Shown here piece by piece: positions 8,155 to 17,585 of a stretch of 64,000 nucleotides of DNA. The DNA comes from a virus (taxonomy: Duplodnaviria; Caudoviricetes), in the IMG/VR virus record IMGVR_UViG_3300028833_000053; one strand, written 5' to 3'. The position numbers and the translations under genes are program-made. The notes under the pieces were generated by a model that searched no databases, was not told where the DNA came from, and saw only the letters and a list, made by a program, of their open reading frames with translations. Position 1 is the stretch's first letter; every line of letters starts with the position of its first letter.

Positions 8155-11100
8155 ATGGCTCAACCAAGGACACAAGATAACCAAAAGGTATTTCAATCGG
8201 CGACATAGAACTTCAAGTCCTTTGTCGGTGCGGTTGACAATGTGTCGTCGTCAAAGAACATCAGTGAAATCTACGACAACATGACAAAGTTGTTTGACGT
8301 TTTCACCCAAGGTGCTTTGACGGGTCAGGGCGCAAACTCCGAGATTTTGCTGCGAACTGTCTACCGTTCCTTGTCGGATGACTTCCTGAAGATAATCCAG
8401 GACACGGACGCCGTTGAAAAGATAGTGGAACTCATAAAGAGCAAGCAGGAAAGCATAGACCCTGAGCAGGTTGACCAGGCTATGGTTTCCGAGACCACGA
8501 AGAAGGTTGTCACGAAGACGCTTGACCCATACGAGTGCGATCCAATGTCCGTGGTGTTGGATTTCGTTGACGAGCTTCAAACGGCAATTCTTCAAGTCAA
8601 GCTCAACCTCTCGCGTGAATACGAGAGGAAGAAGCTGGCTTATGCGAAATCCTATGAGGGACAACAGGAAGATCTTGACCGCCTCAATCAGGAATACACC
8701 GAGCAGGACGAGGCTATGGTGGAAGTCCTTGAACAGATGTCCGAGGACGAGGAGACTTGGAAAGAGGATTCGCTTGAGAAGTTGGAGAAGTTGCTTGAGA
8801 CGTTCAATGAGATTGGCAAGGGCAAGGATTCCAACTATGAGTTGTTGCAGGGTGTTGACAAAACCCTGTCCACCGACAAGCAGATTCAGCAATTCTTGAA
8901 GGAGAAGCCACCGAAGTTCTCTCCGAAGAAAACGCTTGATGCCATAAAGGGTGTTGGGCAGTTGAAGAGCAAGCCGGACGTCACAACCGTTGAGAGCAAG
9001 ACCCAAACCAAGACCGTTGTGAAGTCCACGCAAACGGAAATCAAGAACACGGTTGTGGTGAAGGAAAAGGCGAAGAAAGACGGAAAGAAAGTTCCATAGC
9101 CGAAGGTTCCTGAAAAACCAGTTGCGAAGGACGAGAAGAAAAAGGAAACGCCTGTAAAGGAAAAGACACCCGAAACGCCGACTCCGGTGAAGAAGGATGA
9201 GGCAAAGACGCAGACCCCACAGGTTCCGGAGAAAACTCCAGAACCCATTGGCAAGAAGGGTCCGCCACCAATCCAGCAGGAAAAGATAAAGGTTGCTCCG
9301 CCTCCACCATTGCCGGTAGTTCCACCTCAAATCGAGAAAGAAGAAAAGCCGAACGAGGATGAAAAGGCTAAAAAGCCCATTATGGAAAAACCCATAATGG
9401 AGAAGCCCATTATTCAAAAGCCGGTAATGGGAAAGCCGATAATAGAAAAGGCGGTTGACGAAAAACCCAAGGTTGAGAAACCAACTCTGGAAAAGGCAAC
9501 GAAGGAAAAGCCGACAATTGAGAAACCAAAGGTTGAACCAGTATAGGTATAGAAGCCAACCTTGGAGAAGCCAATGGTCGAGAAGCCGACGGTTGAAAAG
9601 CCCGTCGAGCAAAAGCCAATTGTTGAAAAGCCTGTAGTTGAAAAACCCAAAGAGGGAAAGACCACGGTTGAGAAGCCCAAGGTTGAAAAACCTAAAGTTG
9701 AGAAGCCAATTACAGAAAAACCCGTTGTTGCCAAGCCAATTGTTGAAAAGCCAAAGGTTGAGAAGCCGACATTTGAGAAGCCAAAGGACGAGAAGCCTGT
9801 AGTTGAGAAGCCCGTTCAACAAAAGCCGAAAGTCGAGAAGCCTCTTGTTGCGAAGCCGGTGGAGAAGAAGCCTTTGATAGGCAAGCCGTTGGTGAAGAAG
9901 CCCATTTTGGAAAAGCCGACGGAAGGGAAGCCCATTGTCCAAAAGCCATTGGTCAGGAAGCCTCTCATACAAAAGCCTGTTCTGTCAAAACCAGTTCTTG
10001 GAAAGCCGACAATGGGGAAGCCCATTTTCCAGAAGCCAATCACGCAAAAGCCCCTTCTTCAGAAGCCAATAGTTGAGAAGCCCATAAAGAAGAAGCCGTT
10101 GTTGGAAAAGCCGAAGGTTGAAAAGGCGAAGGTGGCGAAGCCGAAAATTGAAAAGGTCAAGTCAAAGGCCGCAAAAAAGGCTCCTGCCAAAATAGTCAAA
10201 AAGGCTGCAAATGCCGTTCCAAAGTCCCCAATGGGGAAAAAGACGCCCGACCCGAAATTGGCGCAAAAGAACTTTGCAAAGGAGTTGGACAAGACCTTGA
10301 ACGCCGGAAAAGTTCAAGAGCAGAAGTACACCAAGCAGTTGGATGTAATAGAGAAGTTTTTGGCAAAGGACGAGAAAGACGATAAGCAAAAGCACGCCGA
10401 GGATGCAAAGCAGCACAAAGAAGATGACATCATCTTCAAGAAGATGCAGGAGAAGGAAAAGAAGGTAAATGCTGCGAAGGACAAGGCCGAAAAAGAAAAG
10501 CGGGACGAGGAGAGGAAAAAGCAAGCCGCAAAGAAGAAGGAGGCGCCGAAGGCCGTCAAGGCGCAACCCAAACCCGCGTCGGCTCTTGGAAAGAAACCCG
10601 CTCCAGAGAAGCCAAAGGACACCAAGCTCAAGGTGAAGCCCAATGCGGGAATGTGTACGTGCCCGATATGCGGTTCGCAACACCTTCCTGGAATGCACTC
10701 ACATGGCGGGAAGAAAAAGGGTGCAATGCCAATGCCGATTCCCGTTCCAATGGGGAAGGGAAAGCAGGGCAAGTTGGCGCAACCCGCAATTCCATTGAAT
10801 CCACTTGGAGGTGACTAGTCCGAGGGTGGAATTCCACAGGACAAGATTGTGTCCACCCTTGGCACAATCCACGACAACTTGGGCAAGACGATGAACAACA
10901 AGAAGTTCAAGAACTCCTTCATGCTCAACTACAAGCCGATTCAAAAGGGCGTGAAGAAGCAACTTGACAAGGTTGGTTCGGACGAGAAAACCATCAGCCA
11001 GGACTTGGCGGAAACAGAGAAGGGCATCAAGAAGTTGAAGAACAAGAAGAAGGGCAGCTTCCTTTCGAGGTTGATGAACGGCGGCATAACCGGACTCATA

Positions 11101-14100
11101 TTCAAGGTCATAGGTGGATTGATTCTCATTGCCCTTGCAAGAATCGCGTTGAAGAAGTGGAAGGAGGCGTATATGCCTCCGACCGACGGCTCCACGATGA
11201 CCATATTCGGATTCCAGATTCCCGGATGGGACACCATAAAGGCAATTGGAATAGGCATATACAATTTCGTCACCGTGGGATTGATGAACCACTATGACAG
11301 ACTCAAGTTGTTCTTTGGAAACCTTCACAACCAACTTTTCGGCAAGAAGGGGGCAATACGAAGCATGGCGCAGGTTCGCCACATATTGCGCAGAATAGTT
11401 TGGGCGTGGATTATCGGACAGACGAAGAAGGCCGCGCGCGGCCTTTGCGACTGGCTGCTTGACATCTTGGCAGTCCCCTTGAACGCCTTGGCTCCTGGCG
11501 CGGGGCTTGTGTTGAAGTTCCTCATCAAGCTCCTCCCGGAAATATACTCGTTCATCACCACCCAGATAATGCTCTTGTGGAGCAAGAACAAGCGCGATGC
11601 GGAAGAGGCCGAAACCGCGGAAGCCGAAAGCATTGGAATGGCCGTCAATTCGGGAACAACCACGGCGATGAGCATGATAAGTTCCCAGCTCAAGGGTTTG
11701 TCCTCTGGGGTGAAGCCATTCAAGAACCAGGCGGCGAACCTACCCGGTCTTGAAACTCAAAAGGGTCCGAAAGGAAGGGGCCCGAAGAAGATGGCCATAA
11801 TGCGCCGCTTCCCAATCAAGTATTACAAGTCCTTTGACAAGGCGAAGAAGATGCAGAACAAGAAGTTTGAGTCTGACATGGAGGAGAACAAGCAGAAGGA
11901 CGAGAAGCGCATAAACGGCGGGGACGTTCTCATCAGCCAGATCGTCGAGGACACGTCAAAGATAAACCAGGCGGTTGACGAATTTACTGGAAGTATTGGA
12001 ACGTGGATCCATAGTTGGGACAATGAGAAAGTTGCGAAAATAAGGAAGTATGCCCCGAAAGAATATGAAGATGCAGACAATCGGGTGTTGGCAGATAAGT
12101 GGAAATGGGATAAAGAATTCAAATAGAAGGTAATTCATAATTACACGTCGTCGATTAGTCAGGAGATATACAAGAGAACCATAGTGGTGGAGCTGAACAA
12201 GGTTTCCGCGTACATGAACGCGCTTGGAAAGTCCTAGAGATTCAAGAACGTGAAAGGTCCGCTGTATGATCCAGTCAAAGGGTGGAATCCTGGATACAGG
12301 GTGTATGCCTCCGATTTGAAGACGGCGATTCCATTCAATCCGCTTGAAAAGATACACAGCAAGGCCGACATTCCAATTGGCGAGCCTGCGAAGGCCGAAG
12401 CCGATTCAATTGGTTGGATGCCCTTCAAGTGGATTTCCAATGGAGTTCCCGTGAACGTGCATCCTATAAACTGGGAATTGGCTAGGGCGAACGCCATATG
12501 GAACTTGTATAACTGGTTGATGAAGAACCGTTTTCAGAACAATTTGAACAATTGGAACACAACCAACATTGAAGATTTCAAGAAAGCCATTCTTCCAGAC
12601 GTGTTTGCCGACTGGAGAAGCTGGAACCAGCCTGTTGGTGATCACAGAAGCGAAGCCACATGGGGCAAGGCATATCCGCCAGAGACATATCAATATGGCG
12701 ATCAATTCGTACGGTTCATAAATGCTTTCCGCGCTGGCAAGATAGATCATGGGAACAACAATCTTGACACCGCGATGAAATTGAGAGACCCGACGTATCT
12801 TGAAAAAATGTTCGACAAGATGCACAAGAAGTTGGGCGACTATGGCACTGCGGCGGTTTCCGGCGCTGCCATAGGTGGTGCTGTCGGTGGTGCGGTTGGA
12901 GCCGTTGCTGGTGCGGCAATAGGTACCGCAGCGGTTGGTGTGTACAAGGGCGCAAAGTGGGTTGGACAGAAGATGGACGACTTGCAACGCGCTTTGTCCT
13001 ACGACCAAGATCCAGACGGAGAGGAGGAAGAATAGACGGAAGAAGTGGAGGAAGAGCAAAGCAGCGTTCCTCTCATAGGTTGGTTGATAAACGGCGTCAA
13101 GAAAGTTGTCAAGGTCATCAAGAAAATCGTCAAGAAGGTGAGCCGCAAGGTCGCAGCCCTCAACCGAATCAAGGAATGGCGCGGCAAGACCTATTTTGGG
13201 GTTAACTATGGTGACATCCGCGATTTCATGATTGACACTGGCGTTTTGCAGTTGTTCAGTCAGGGATAGATCATCAAGCCAGTCCAAAAGACGATTCCTC
13301 TTCTGGACAAGCTCATTGACATGAAGGTGATAGGGAAGGGGTCAAGCGTGGAGGATGGCAACTCGATGCATTCTCTCATGGAGGCTTTCTTCGCATACAA
13401 CCGCATTGAGGGATATGACTGGAAGAAAATGCAAAATGACGAGAGGGCGCAGGCTGCTTTCGCCCAGTCCCTTTTGGAATATCTCGCCTTGAAGGTCATT
13501 CCTCAGTGGAACATAGTTGAAAAGCTCCTTTCAAACGACGTTACGAAGAAAACCGACGAAACCAAAAAGGCGATGGATGAAGGTGTGCAGGTTCTTGCAA
13601 ACTTGCTTTCATTCAAGGGCATAATGGAACACCTTTCAAAGCATCTCCGATTCCCCAACATGAAGGTCAAGGTCATAGACTTCTCCAATGCAAGGGACGA
13701 TCACGACAGGGAGTTGCTTGAACAGTTCAGAAAAGACCAGGGAATTCCCAACAGCGATGAAAAGAACCAAATACTTGCACAGTGGCAAGGCGTTTGGTCG
13801 AAGATTCCAAGCATGAACGATGAGGAGCTTCAAGGCAGCTTGGATAACTTGAAGAAACTCATTGGGGTTGCGGCATTTGAAGCGAAGTACACCGGAGAGT
13901 TCACTTACGAGAAGCAGTTGCGCAAGTTCTACACCGCCATGATAAAGGAGAAGGACGAGCGTTTGAAAGCACAGGCCGCAGGTGACAAGATTGTTCAGAA
14001 GCCGGGTGGGATAGAGCGCGTCATGGAAGGTCCGCCGCCGAAGACCATGTTGGAAATGGAGGAAGAACGCAAGGCAAAGGAAGCCGAGGAAGCAAGAAAA

Positions 14101-14598
14101 GCGGCGGAAGAAGAAGAGAAGCGCAAAGCCGAAGAGGAAAAGAGGCTGCAAGAGGAGGCGAAACGCCAAGAGGAATTGAAAATTGCCCAGGCGAAGATTG
14201 CCGCCATGGAAGCCATCAAGAAGCAGGAGCAGAACTACGAGAACATCTTGGAGAAGATGGTGCAAGACCCATCAACGGTGACTGATGAGGAATTGAAGTC
14301 ACTTGGTGAAGACGTGAAGAACTTGAAGCAGGAAGCAGAAAACAGGATTGCACAACTGCCAAGAGAGGAAAGGGAAATGAAGCTGGCGTTGATTCGCGGC
14401 GACAAGCTTTCTGAAAAGACCTTCGCCGAGTTGAAGGAAACCGCAGTGGGGTTGAGTGGAAGTCTACAAGCCTACATCTAGGAAGTGAACCAAATTCCAG
14501 TTGGCTCTATAATGGCAATATAGGAAACGCCAGGAACGCCAACAGAAAGCAAGATATAGTTGCAAGACTCCGACAATGTGGATATGGGCGACGAATAA
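8155..14598 (+). CDS. Giant 2147-aa protein with KPxxE pentapeptide repeats, hydrophobic segments and coiled coils; 12 in-frame TAGs; possible tape-measure or ejection-type virion protein
   Basis: Seven listed ORFs (8242, 9187, 9562, 10849, 12250, 13045, 13321) lie in one frame. The only breaks are TAG at 8206, 9097, 9544, 9550, 10816, 12124, 12235, 13033, 13267, 14479, 14521 and 14557. ATG at 8155, TAA at 14596. Confidence 0.85.
9370..10160 (+). repeat. Degenerate 15-nt (5-aa) tandem repeat encoding KP-x-x-(E/Q/G/K)
   Basis: KPIME KPIME KPIIQ KPVMG KPIIE ... KPKVE KPTFE ... KPLIQ KPVLS, roughly 50 units. Confidence 0.9.
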
Positions 14599-14629
14599 AA
14601 AGACTTGGTTGGATAAGCCAAGTCTTTTT
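14598..14629 (+). terminator. Intrinsic terminator next to a TATAAT element upstream of the tRNA
   Basis: AAAAGACTTGG-loop-CCAAGTCTTTTT; TATAAT at 14632. Confidence 0.75.
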
Positions 14630-14654
14630 AGTATAATTGAATGTGACGATTTAA

Positions 14655-14685
14655 TGCCCTATAGTGTAACAGCAGCACAGGGCAA
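14655..14685 (+). pseudogene. tRNA remnant (acceptor stem plus D-arm only), tRNA-Gln-like
   Basis: TGCCCT-ATA-GTGT-AACAGCA-GCAC-AGGGCA-A; its D-stem GTGT/GCAC is identical to that of the adjacent tRNA. Confidence 0.45.
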
Positions 14686-14691
14686 ATTGAA

Positions 14692-14781
14692 TGAGCAGTG
14701 GTGTACGGCTTGCACAGACGGTCTCTAAAACCGTGGCTTCTGAAGCGAACGGACTGGGTTCGACTCCCAGCTGCTCAACCA
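14692..14781 (+). tRNA. Amber suppressor tRNA, anticodon CUA, probably Gln-accepting, with a long variable arm
   Basis: Acceptor TGAGCAG/CTGCTCA plus A-CCA; D-stem GTGT/GCAC; anticodon arm ACGGT-CTCTAAA-ACCGT (CTA at 14725-14727); T-arm CTGGG-TTCGACT-CCCAG. Confidence 0.9.
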
Positions 14782-14795
14782 ATTTGGAGACTGAC

Positions 14796-15083
14796 ATGGA
14801 AAAGAAAATTGACTTTGAGTTATTGACTGTAATTGACGAATCCATTGGTGATTCGGCAAGTTATGTTGATGCACTGGACAAGGTTATCAAGTGGGAGAAG
14901 GAGAATCGTGGATTGAAGGGATTCCATGTTTCCGCGCCTCTTGACGTGATGTGCGGAACAAGGAAAGTGGAAGACCCCGAAAAGGAAGCCGAGGAAATGG
15001 CGAGGGGTGTTCTGTTGATGCATCGCGCAGGGGCGTTGGGGAAATGGAAGGAAATCTCAGGTGACGAATTGGAGAGGATGTAA
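14796..15083 (+). CDS. Hypothetical protein
   Basis: GGAG RBS then ATG (MEKKIDF...) just after the tRNA. Confidence 0.6.
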   Translation: MEKKIDFELLTVIDESIGDSASYVDALDKVIKWEKENRGLKGFHVSAPLDVMCGTRKVEDPEKEAEEMARGVLLMHRAGALGKWKEISGDELERM

Positions 15084-15337
15084 AAATGTTTAATTTGTTC
15101 TATTGGGGTTTGTTTGGAAGTCATTTGGAAGAGGAATGGGAGCGCGAACATCCTGAGGAATCCGCGGAGCAGAAATACATTGAACAGCGTTGGGAACTTC
15201 AGGCGCAGTTGAGGAAATACCCAAATGCCAGAACCACAATCCGGATGCTTGACAAAGAGAACTACCGCACGTATGTTAGGCGAATGCTGGAGATTGGCGG
15301 TTCAAGGTCGATAAAGCAGTTTGAGGATATTTGAGAT

Positions 15338-15406
15338 ATGAGACGTGTGTTTGTAATAAGAAAGGATTTGCATCTGAAGCCCGGCAAGATGGGCGCGATG
15401 GATTGA
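15338..15406 (+). pseudogene. Truncated original 5' end of the peptidyl-tRNA hydrolase gene
   Basis: MRRVFVIRKDLHLKPGKMGAMD* versus MRRVIIIRKDLHLKAGKLAAM at 16665. Confidence 0.8.
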
Positions 15407-15554
15407 TTTTGTAGTAAAAACTACACAGGACAGATTGACTCTAATCAATTTTGGCTAGGTTTGCATAACGCCTAGCCATTACTGTTTTAGACTAAAATGG
15501 TAAATACTTATAAACTTGTTAGAGCAAGGTTATAAAAATAAAGGTAATTAAGTT

Positions 15555-16655
15555 ATGCATCGTTATACTCAAGAAGAATTATAGTCTATATTTTAGGACT
15601 AGAAATTGGGTGAGGAAATAATTCCTCATATTAAAAACAATAAGATAGATATTGTTTTGTGGAATCAACGATATAAGCAACAATGGAAATAGATTTAGAG
15701 ACAGATGAAGAAGGGTTTATTGTGTCCGGTTTGTGGCACAATACTATTTAAGTTTTATGAGAAACATTTAGCACAGCATAATCTTACTGTAAAATAGTTA
15801 TATGATTAGGTATATGGTATAACTGAATCACCCAAATGCCCTGTGTGTGGAGAAGCAACAGAGTTTGTTAAGAACAAATGGTTTTATCGTAAATTTTGTT
15901 GTAATGCTCATTAGTGCAGAATTATAAATGAGACTGACGGATTGAGGAACGGATGGACTATTGAAGATATTAGAAATCATAATTCCATGATAATAGAACG
16001 TGGAAGAAAAGTATGCGATATAGTCAATAAAAAATATGGAAGTCAGTTTTCAATAAAATTAACTGATGAATAGCGTCTTAATAGAGGGTTAATAAATGAT
16101 GATGACTATTAGGAGTGGCAGACATAGTAGAAGTTAAAAAAATCAGAAGCCGGAAAACTTGGAGGGAAAAAATATTCTTCGTTATATGGATATAAATTAT
16201 TGAAGACATGGGGTTACAAAACGAAAATATTTTTGACTGAAAATAAATGGTTCATGCTTGAATCTTAGTAGGAATTGTTTCATTTATTGAAACGTGTATT
16301 TATCGACGGAGATAAGATTGAAACTATGAGTAATGCAATATTTTTAGAGAATACGACTAATTTATTTTCTGGAACAAGTGCTTTTACGGATTTGGTTATA
16401 GATAATAATGGAATAAAAACAAATTATGAAGTTCATTGTATAGATGATGAAGACACTATAAAAAGAAAACGATATTGTTCTGAATTAAATGGATATGAAT
16501 TTGTATTGGAAGATATTACTTTATACACATATCCGAATGGAAAATACATTGACCAATTAAGATAGTTTATAAATGTAGATGAAATTTATGAAAAGTTGAA
16601 ATATGAAAATAAATGTGGTAATGTATTTGTATTGAACTTATATGATTATGTATAA
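15555..16655 (+). CDS. Putative free-standing homing endonuclease (zinc fingers plus PD-(D/E)xK-like C-terminus), 366 aa, 15 in-frame TAGs
   Basis: Read codon by codon, with no TAA/TGA from ATG 15555 to TAA 16653. CPVCG twice, YRKFCC, ES(Q)(Q)E...FTDLVI...YEVH. AT-rich; GTAAATA at 15500. Confidence 0.7.
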
Positions 16656-16664
16656 TTATTCAAT

Positions 16665-17243
16665 ATGAGAAGGGTTATCATAATACGTAAAGATTTACAC
16701 CTCAAAGCTGGTAAATTAGCTGCTATGTGTATGCACTGTGCAGAGGCATATTGGACTAACTTGATGAAGTCATCCGTTGTCATTGACAACGAGTTCATGA
16801 CTTTGCCCGCATGGGAGAACTATGGAAATGGAAAAGTGGGACCGGCCCTCTACAAGCACCCAGGACTTTACAAGTTGTCTGAAGAGGCTTACAACCGTGG
16901 GGAGAAGTCCTTCACCACAACGAGGGAAAACGCCCGTAAGTCCGTGACGGTCACGATGGAGATTCCAAAGGACATTTGGGAAGGGTATGTAAACGACATC
17001 TTCACAAAGACAATTTGCGAAGCACGCAACTTGAACAACTTGAAAACGAAGATTGAGCCGGTTGTGCAGGAACTTGGATTGGTTGAGGGGATTGATTGGG
17101 GCTACATCAACGATTGCTGCAAGACGGACTTGACGCCCGAGAACGAGGATGGCACTTGCACGATTGGTGCGTGGTTCAAGCCATTGCCTGACGAAGACGC
17201 ATTCAAGATTAGCAAGAAGTTCAAGCTTTACAGGGATGATTGA
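16665..17243 (+). CDS. pth2: Peptidyl-tRNA hydrolase, PTH2 family
   Basis: VIIIRKDL-LKAGKLAAMCMH N-terminal motif; FTKTIC; I-D...TDL...GTCTIGAWFKP; C-terminal KFKLY. Confidence 0.8.
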   Translation: MRRVIIIRKDLHLKAGKLAAMCMHCAEAYWTNLMKSSVVIDNEFMTLPAWENYGNGKVGPALYKHPGLYKLSEEAYNRGEKSFTTTRENARKSVTVTMEIPKDIWEGYVNDIFTKTICEARNLNNLKTKIEPVVQELGLVEGIDWGYINDCCKTDLTPENEDGTCTIGAWFKPLPDEDAFKISKKFKLYRDD

Positions 17244-17264
17244 TTCCTGTATAATTGGACTATT

Positions 17265-17585
17265 ATGAAAAATATTCTTTTAGTTGCCGCCATTATGTTT
17301 CTTGGAATGGTCAAGGCGGAGACCAACATAAAGCCATCGGACACCAATGACCTTCATGTTATCATGGTGTCGAAATCCCAGTGGACAGACATCAAGAACA
17401 ACGTTGACACGAATGGGTTCTGCAGAATTCCAGACCAACATGCGGCCATCGTGATTACAAATGGTCTGCCTGATGTTGAACTGGTTGTGCCGATGCTGCG
17501 TCCAATTGGAAGGGGAGCGGATAGAAATCCCTACTACAACTATCGGAAACAGGAACCACTTCCATATGTGGGTCAATTATATTGA
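17265..17585 (+). CDS. Secreted hypothetical protein
   Basis: Signal peptide MKNILLVAAIMFLGMVKA. Confidence 0.6.
   Translation: MKNILLVAAIMFLGMVKAETNIKPSDTNDLHVIMVSKSQWTDIKNNVDTNGFCRIPDQHAAIVITNGLPDVELVVPMLRPIGRGADRNPYYNYRKQEPLPYVGQLY

Follow-up and report, generated by a model that had tools for sequence, protein, structure and literature searches.

A putative homing-endonuclease cassette in the 5' part of pth2 of huge TAG-recoded phages

The free-standing endonucleases of T4-like phages spread by intron-less homing, carry promoters embedded in their genes and are controlled by a late promoter combined with a hairpin (PMC2988022). A different outcome of endonuclease invasion is known from fungal mitochondria, where the end of atp6 or cob has been duplicated and endonuclease open reading frames (ORFs) lie between the functional gene and a leftover fragment (PMC6279837). 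A third system is the intron endonuclease of the TGA-recoded 'Agate' phage, which is rich in the reassigned stop codon and is predicted to stay untranslated until late infection (Borges et al., bioRxiv 10.1101/2021.08.26.457843). Here we describe a locus with likenesses to each of them, found in a stretch of 64,000 nucleotides (nt), hereafter called the window, of the IMG/VR virus record IMGVR_UViG_3300028833_000053 (Duplodnaviria; Caudoviricetes). It consists of an AT-rich cassette that separates a short 5' stub of pth2, the gene of a peptidyl-tRNA hydrolase, from a complete copy of the same gene. Our analyses suggest, with a probability of roughly 0.85, that this is a free-standing homing-endonuclease cassette which invades the 5' part of pth2 in huge TAG-recoded phages by intron-less homing.

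The severed and the replaced 5' end of pth2

Two relatives lack the insert. L002, a 418-kb IMG/VR contig, and L005, whose pth2 product is 93% identical, both have the gene of an 82-amino-acid (aa) protein followed directly by an uninterrupted pth2, and the window aligns over 14785-15400 and 16740-17279 to adjoining DNA in L002, and in the same way to L005, homology to both stopping at 15400. The window locus is ~1.33 kb longer than these insert-free relatives (Table 1). Codons 1-21 of the stub equal the N-terminus of uninterrupted pth2 at every residue (L005, L002 and the proteins P0001-P0008), so the likeness is not a matter of chance; its DNA is identical to that of L005 at 56/63 nt, all seven differences being synonymous, and we regard the stub as the resident, original 5' end of pth2. 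The same precise site is thus polymorphic for presence and absence, being empty in L002 and L005 and filled in the window, L006, L007, L008 and L013. The initial annotation of this locus had proposed that pth2 was split by an endonuclease insert, and the insert-free relatives bear this out, since in them the stub sequence forms the beginning of an intact gene. Among the relatives, none was found in which the gene end is duplicated and the nuclease gene is missing.

Table 1. Features of the pth2 locus in the window
Feature	Position	Strand	Remarks
Suppressor tRNA, anticodon CUA	14692..14781	+	long variable arm; ARAGORN
82-aa resident gene	15086..15334	+	abuts pth2 in insert-free relatives; syntenic with L002 5725-5997 and L005 345-593
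Stub ORF	15338..15406	+	22 codons + TGA; pth2 codons 1-21 (15338-15400), then insert-derived GAT and TGA
Foreign DNA overall	15401..16745	+	spacer, leader, nuclease gene and imported pth2 5' end; missing from L002 and L005
AT-rich insert between stub and pth2	15407..16664	+	1258 bp
Leader three-way junction	15424..15486	+	closing stem, hairpins 15432-15451 and 15452-15478
GTAAATA, promoter-like	15500..15506	+	49 nt before nuclease start codon; between three-way junction and hairpin 3
Leader hairpin 3	15511..15532	+	loop 15519-15524 complementary to hairpin 1 loop
Homing-endonuclease-like gene	15555..16655	+	366 codons, 15 in-frame TAG, TAA stop
TATAAT box	16651..16656	+	overlaps nuclease stop, 8 nt before new pth2 start; candidate embedded promoter
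Complete chimeric pth2	16665..17243	+	192 aa; imported 5' end, then resident body

The insert is set apart by its composition, with a GC content of 0.22-0.34 in 200-nt windows (~29% overall) against ~0.47 for the whole window and ~0.47-0.50 for the flanks, and it contains a structured leader, one 366-codon ORF and the ~80-120 nt with which the present pth2 begins. The stub of 22 codons, the AT-rich insert of ~1.25 kb and the complete pth2 behind it were all found where the initial annotation had placed them. The downstream protein belongs to the PTH2 peptidyl-tRNA hydrolases (Pfam PF01981, E 2.4e-10, 41.1 bits with a cut-off of 23); a search with it returned 1750 homologues, most of them with PF01981, and overall it is 93% identical to P0001. 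Its beginning departs from this pattern. Over nt 1-63 the present gene is identical to its closest relative, L005, at only 41/63 positions, as compared with 54/63 for L004, which belongs to a distant pth2 lineage and has a gene that is just ~70% identical over its whole length. Between gene nt 80 and 120 the identity to L005 rises again, to reach 87-100% per 30-nt block after nt ~120, which places the crossover to resident DNA in a recombination zone at ~16745-16785; the GC content recovers ~80-100 nt inside the gene. The new N-terminus has a CMHC motif in place of the L(G/A)HL common to its eight closest relatives, and CMHC occurs naturally in the distant proteins P0040 and P0084. Taken together, these comparisons indicate that the replacement 5' end is foreign and stems from another pth2 lineage, in keeping with the diverged, AT-rich start pointed out earlier.

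The cassette is not peculiar to the window. Seven contigs with close homologues of its gene were fetched, six of them distinct (L010 and L011 carry the same protein), and in 7/7 the gene lies directly upstream of pth2 or of its readable part, four times with a stub and three times without. The homologues of L006, L007, L008, L010, L011 and L013 are 51-58% identical in amino acids, all need TAG read as glutamine and all precede pth2; the gene of L012 is probably also upstream of pth2, the contig ending at ATGAG. Codon 21 is the last of the stub in L007, L008 and L013, and codon 17 is the last in L006. There is none in L010/L011, where the cassette follows the end of another gene, and none in L012, where it starts 6 nt after a tRNA (L012:207-294) homologous to the tRNA-CUA of the window, with a different acceptor stem. 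Assembly artefacts were considered as a source of the layout and rejected, as it is the same in five independent assemblies. The pth2 behind the cassette of L008 (L008:1330-1739) is interrupted close to its start by an in-frame TGA and shifts frame further on, and may be either a decaying gene or the product of low-coverage assembly errors. A distant member of the family, of 464 aa and with 12 TAG codons, is encoded at L009:1476-3065 and stands before an LpxR-like gene instead of pth2; no stub of this downstream gene was found in L009.

The most telling pair of loci is L007 and L013, whose host genomes have a very different GC content. Their cassettes are 96% identical in the leader, 90% in the nuclease ORF and 89% in the spacer, and the likeness extends into the new pth2 (100% over nt 1-30, 80% over nt 31-60), whereas the stubs are 60% identical, the 50 nt upstream 39% and pth2 beyond nt 60 only 37-63%. 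A near-identical cassette between divergent flanks argues for a single cassette that reached the same codon in two unrelated genomes, bringing the first few dozen nt of pth2 along. The imported tract would measure 30-60 nt in L007 and L013 and 80-120 nt in the window, and such a variable right edge has the look of a co-conversion tract.

The recoded gene, its product and its leader

Under the standard code the insert holds no long ORF, and one frame opens when TAG is read through; it uses TAG 15 times against 9 times for CAA and CAG together. The endonuclease of the initial annotation needs a correction here, as its frame is open only with TAG as a sense codon. TAG acts as a sense codon in this phage, read as glutamine: a tRNA-CUA gene lies 560 nt upstream of the stub, a gene of 2147 codons at 8155-14598 has 12 in-frame TAG codons and its conservation with the L002 homologue continues past the TAG at 14479, and across the nuclease family the residues opposite TAG columns are glutamine 7.8 times more often than background. 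Translation through the 15 TAG codons of the nuclease gene would require the tRNA-CUA. Its Rfam match is to tRNA-Sec, at 33.6 bits and below the gathering score. The suppressor tRNAs of the window and of L012 measure 88-90 nt, and glutamine, as deduced from the alignments, is an odd partner for a long variable arm. The 2147-codon gene would seem to end at 14481 under the standard code. Between it and the 82-aa gene, a 130-aa standard-code ORF (14691-15083) overlaps the tRNA gene; its L002 homologue begins near an internal methionine at ~14796, which is probably the true start.

As to the protein, neither Pfam nor PHROGs gave anything convincing for the 366-codon ORF. A scan of IMG/VR with the protein returned no relative, and relatives came from exhaustive HMMER and word-index searches only: the former yielded 33, and a profile search added the full-length homologues mentioned above. 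The N-terminal third begins with a C2H2-like finger, followed by a zinc ribbon. These modules are common to proteins with HNH, endonuclease-I/TnsA-like or other PD-(D/E)xK domains, and one protein that shares them matches a PHROG annotated as homing endonuclease; such modularity is typical of free-standing homing endonucleases. For the remainder we relied on an AlphaFold2 (AF2) model made with a 16-sequence alignment (pLDDT 84), a single-sequence model with a pLDDT of 37 having been set aside. The modelled C-terminal domain, residues ~218-366, has the alpha-beta-beta-beta-alpha-beta core of the PD-(D/E)xK superfamily, with middling scores, and VIA-align matched it best to TnsA (Z 8.0, root-mean-square deviation 3.5 over 131 residues), followed by Vsr (Z 5.8), the catalytic domain of I-Bth0305I (Z 4.9) and Hjc (Z 4.4). 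Further matches were an endonuclease-like protein, AF1548, LlaBIII, tRNA-splicing endonucleases and the nuclease domains of type I, II and ISP restriction enzymes. Most of the 50 structural matches listed are nucleases of the restriction-endonuclease fold. Foldseek also put TnsA first (E 0.02). The first alignment, of seven sequences, shows D279 and E292 as invariant and E241 as conserved, and the model places them on the helix and on the pair of strands which bear the catalytic residues in this fold. Position 294, which corresponds to the lysine of the D...(D/E)xK motif, is a histidine (an arginine in P0123), and the helix after it carries a conserved R-K-(K/R). We conclude that the protein has, as modelled, a PD-(D/E)xK-like nuclease fold with a variant motif. 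Its nuclease identity, which had simply been assumed in the initial annotation, is here based on the modelled fold and the shared DNA-binding modules, and not on any Pfam match.

The ~150 nt that precede the nuclease ORF are conserved and structured, with a minimum free energy z-score of -3.16, and RNAalifold kept 14/32 pairs over six loci despite changes on both sides. The loops of hairpins 1 and 3 are complementary in every locus and fall into four covarying classes across seven loci, L009 included; cognate loop-loop duplexes measure 7-9 nt, as against 3-6 nt for loops taken from different classes. A stretch of 7-15 nt across the nuclease start codon is complementary to the hairpin 2 loop, again with matching changes between loci. 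In the window the paired segments are 15439-15444 with 15519-15524 for hairpins 1 and 3, and 15462-15469 with 15552-15559 for hairpin 2 and the start codon. The leader of L009, although at a different site, shares this architecture and has a complementary loop pair of its own.

Two promoter-like motifs accompany these elements. GTAAATA has 16 copies in the window where 3.84 are expected, a count reached in 0/100 shuffles, and 14/16 copies lie on the + strand. Most precede a gene, and several of these genes contain TAG; a TAAATA core, with the G in most cases, is found in the leaders of L006, L007, L009, L010, L012 and L013. It is probably a phage promoter element. Examples of other sites in the window are 7416, 8123, 18312, 44781, 48642 and 57175. 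The second motif is the TATAAT that had been noticed at the endonuclease stop and indeed overlaps the TAA at 16653-16655; six fetched loci have a similar box at the same place, reading into pth2 (L006, L007, L008, L010 and L013 among them), and like boxes also precede other genes of the window. TATAAT or (T)GATATACT boxes were seen 5-40 nt before the start codons of many + strand genes (for example at 17250, 32199, 37327 and 43590), and some are so near the start codon that the transcripts would be almost leaderless. By analogy with T4 (PMC2988022), transcripts reading through from upstream would fold with the nuclease start codon masked, and those started at GTAAATA would be free of the masking loops, to which the 15 TAG codons would add a dependence on the suppressor tRNA. 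Expression of the nuclease is probably held back to late infection by the GTAAATA motif, the leader loops and the TAG codons acting together.

The place that the cassette occupies may attract such genes more generally. At the syntenic position of L002 (4019-5191), with the giant gene on one side and the small genes that precede pth2 on the other, there is a different tRNA-CUA of 77 nt and beside it a different free-standing endonuclease gene, whose product matches Phage_endo_I (PF05367, E 3e-8) and has C2H2 fingers and a NUMOD3-like motif; BLASTP found no similarity between this endonuclease and the window nuclease. The neighbourhood of tRNA-CUA and pth2 looks like a hot spot for homing endonucleases. 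The window itself derives from a record of 433,895 bp with direct terminal repeats, estimated to be complete, and the relatives of its pth2 sit on contigs of 200-430 kb, so that we are dealing with a huge phage. Searches of a phage GenBank collection, by blastn with 6 kb and by tblastn with pth2, gave no match.

Mechanism and alternative readings

It seems reasonable to propose that the mobile unit would comprise the structured leader, the gene of a zinc-finger and PD-(D/E)xK-type nuclease, the TATAAT-like box and the first 30-100 nt of the donor pth2. The nuclease would cut a cassette-free pth2 at or near the boundary of codons 21 and 22, perhaps in the GK-xAA motif region as suggested in the initial annotation. 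The right end of the break would be repaired by recombination with the donor pth2, importing the donor 5' end over a tract of variable length, and the left end would be joined to the cassette without replacement of the resident 5' end, leaving a stub of 17-21 codons whose frame meets a stop right at the junction or at most three codons away. A donor and a recipient that share upstream sequence would leave no stub, and the stub-less loci suggest that such sharing lets recombination on the left replace the whole 5' end. The gene would stay functional throughout, as an ATG, and probably a promoter too, came with the imported 5' end, and the altered sequence presumably guards the new allele from being cut again. 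Intron-less homing, the process put forward in the initial annotation, is thus favoured by the empty sites in relatives, the foreign 5' end, the lack of an intron signal and the recurrence of the cassette; cleavage itself is what we infer from them.

Several observations weigh against this proposal. The left junction is identical in L007 and L013 on both the target and the cassette side, which random end-joining does not predict and which points to annealing of the donor stub or to another precise mechanism; annealing to the donor stub during synthesis-dependent repair would fit the left-side step better than random end-joining. Most of the related loci are short metagenome contigs. With histidine or arginine in place of the motif lysine, the protein could be inactive or work differently. 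Its best fold score is at the middling level of the tool, no Pfam, PHROG or PDB profile of a nuclease matched the C-terminal domain, the PDB sequence-profile search gave weak zinc-finger matches only, and hhalign of this domain against endonuclease-I-like domains was negative (probability 0.1). Last, a sigma-70 consensus scan missed the TATAAT at 16651 and found no -35 partner, and the counts were not above those of shuffled sequences; support for the possible new promoter of the initial annotation comes from the recurrence of a TATAAT-like box in six loci.

The alternative that survives best, unlikely as we hold it to be, is that the ORF does not encode an active homing endonuclease at all. 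It would be a degenerate or repurposed DNA-binding protein or a moron, the layout would have arisen by ordinary illegitimate recombination between phages, and inheritance would now be mostly vertical or by general recombination. Homing endonuclease genes often decay after fixation, and the replaced lysine together with the missing profile matches would suit such a history. Yet each locus has kept the ORF whole, for all its 7-17 TAG codons, and has preserved the invariant acidic residues, a near-identical cassette occupies exactly the same codon in two unrelated genomes, and all seven fetched contigs show it adjoining the same target gene or the readable part of it; a specificity for one site that holds in genomes so divergent is the hallmark of homing. 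A small site-specific transposon-like element, whose TnsA-like nuclease cuts its own ends and inserts after codon 21, appears very improbable. TnsA is indeed the best structural match and the left junction is identical on both sides in L007 and L013, but the insert has only one ORF and encodes neither a TnsB-like transposase nor another partner, terminal inverted repeats were not noted (no dedicated repeat search was run), and the right boundary varies within homologous pth2, as expected of gene conversion and not of transposition. The least credible alternative is a self-splicing intron, group I or other ribozyme, with an endonuclease gene, the stub being exon 1 spliced to the body: the insert does interrupt coding sequence at a motif of high conservation, as introns with homing endonucleases do, has a conserved structured RNA before its ORF, and follows a stub that is open in frame up to the junction in all five stub loci, but Rfam gave no intron or ribozyme match over the whole window at gathering scores or over 14500-17300 at E<=10 (the group I check suggested in the initial annotation, negative for group II as well), the downstream pth2 has its own ATG and the same full length as in relatives, so that splicing would not be needed for a complete product, the stub-less L010/L011 and L012 combine the same cassette with the same self-sufficient pth2, the leader recurs with the distant L009 at a different site, and its loops pair with the start region of the nuclease's own gene, as a translational regulator would rather than a ribozyme core. 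An intein was also considered and rejected, the stub frame stopping two codons past the junction and meeting many stops thereafter.

Going further than intron-less homing of a free-standing cassette, it is tempting to regard the element as a third general way of invading genes, besides introns and inteins. It would replace a gene end, use the stub as a left homology arm, bring its own start and promoter, and be governed by a two-loop riboregulator and by stop-codon gating tied to the code switch. A stub that acts as a built-in homology arm would account for the identical junction in unrelated genomes. We advance this generalization tentatively and give it rather less than even odds.

If the proposed homing is correct, selfish nuclease genes have a way into conserved coding sequences that needs no splicing machinery: they supply a replacement gene end and leave a chimeric host protein. 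The nuclease-like family was previously unannotated, and gene callers miss it because the standard code breaks the gene into fragments; for the annotation of huge phages this means that a recoded mobile element can hide behind a short 'orphan' ORF or an AT-rich 'non-coding' island. The cassette also links mobile elements to recoding: a gene with 15 TAG codons would be silent unless the suppressor tRNA is active, so that the code switch may time a potentially genome-damaging enzyme. Finally, the conserved leader with its four covarying loop-loop variants is a candidate for a compact riboregulator.

Relation to known mobile elements

Among described systems, the free-standing endonucleases of T4-like phages come closest. 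SegG (at gene 32), SegF, SegB and MobE are, like the nuclease of the cassette, encoded next to their target genes. They spread by break repair with co-conversion of target flanks of variable length, embed promoters for the downstream gene and combine a late promoter with RNA structures that hide the translation start (PMC2988022), all of which has its counterpart in our reading of the cassette. Unlike them, the cassette sits inside the coding region of its target and leaves a severed 5' stub. Its nuclease is modelled as PD-(D/E)xK-like and not as GIY-YIG or HNH, and its translation would depend on TAG suppression; the start would be masked by the loops of an upstream three-way junction, in contrast to the local hairpin of the T4-like genes.

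The fungal atp6 and cob cases share with the cassette the duplication of a terminal gene segment and an endonuclease ORF between the copies (PMC6279837). They concern 3' (C-terminal) ends, LAGLIDADG or GIY-YIG enzymes and organelles, whereas the cassette concerns a 5' end, with the start codon and a probable promoter, in a phage. A hybrid atp6 made by gene-end duplication was reportedly described by Paquin, Laforest and Lang in 1994. Intron and intein endonucleases, and the split-intein 'fractured genes' (PMC2677866), resemble the cassette in that a conserved site of an essential-looking coding sequence is invaded and function is kept. They do so by RNA or protein splicing; the cassette would instead supply, in DNA, a second copy of the severed gene end.

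At the level of the protein, the model shares with TnsA, Vsr, Hjc and I-Bth0305I the fold, the order of secondary structures, a glutamate on the helix, an aspartate before strand 2 and a glutamate on strand 3. I-Ssp6803I is another PD-(D/E)xK nuclease. The cassette protein differs from such nucleases by the lack of detectable profile similarity, by histidine or arginine in place of the motif lysine and by another N-terminal architecture. The Agate endonuclease gene is, like that of the cassette, enriched in the reassigned stop codon; there TGA is reassigned to tryptophan and the gene is borne by an intron, as opposed to a free-standing gene with TAG reassigned to glutamine.

Our literature searches found no phage case and no 5'-end case of gene-end replacement. 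New in the cassette, as we read it, are the replacement of a 5' gene end in a phage, a PD-(D/E)xK-like family that had escaped annotation, an extreme dependence on TAG and a leader with two covarying loops.

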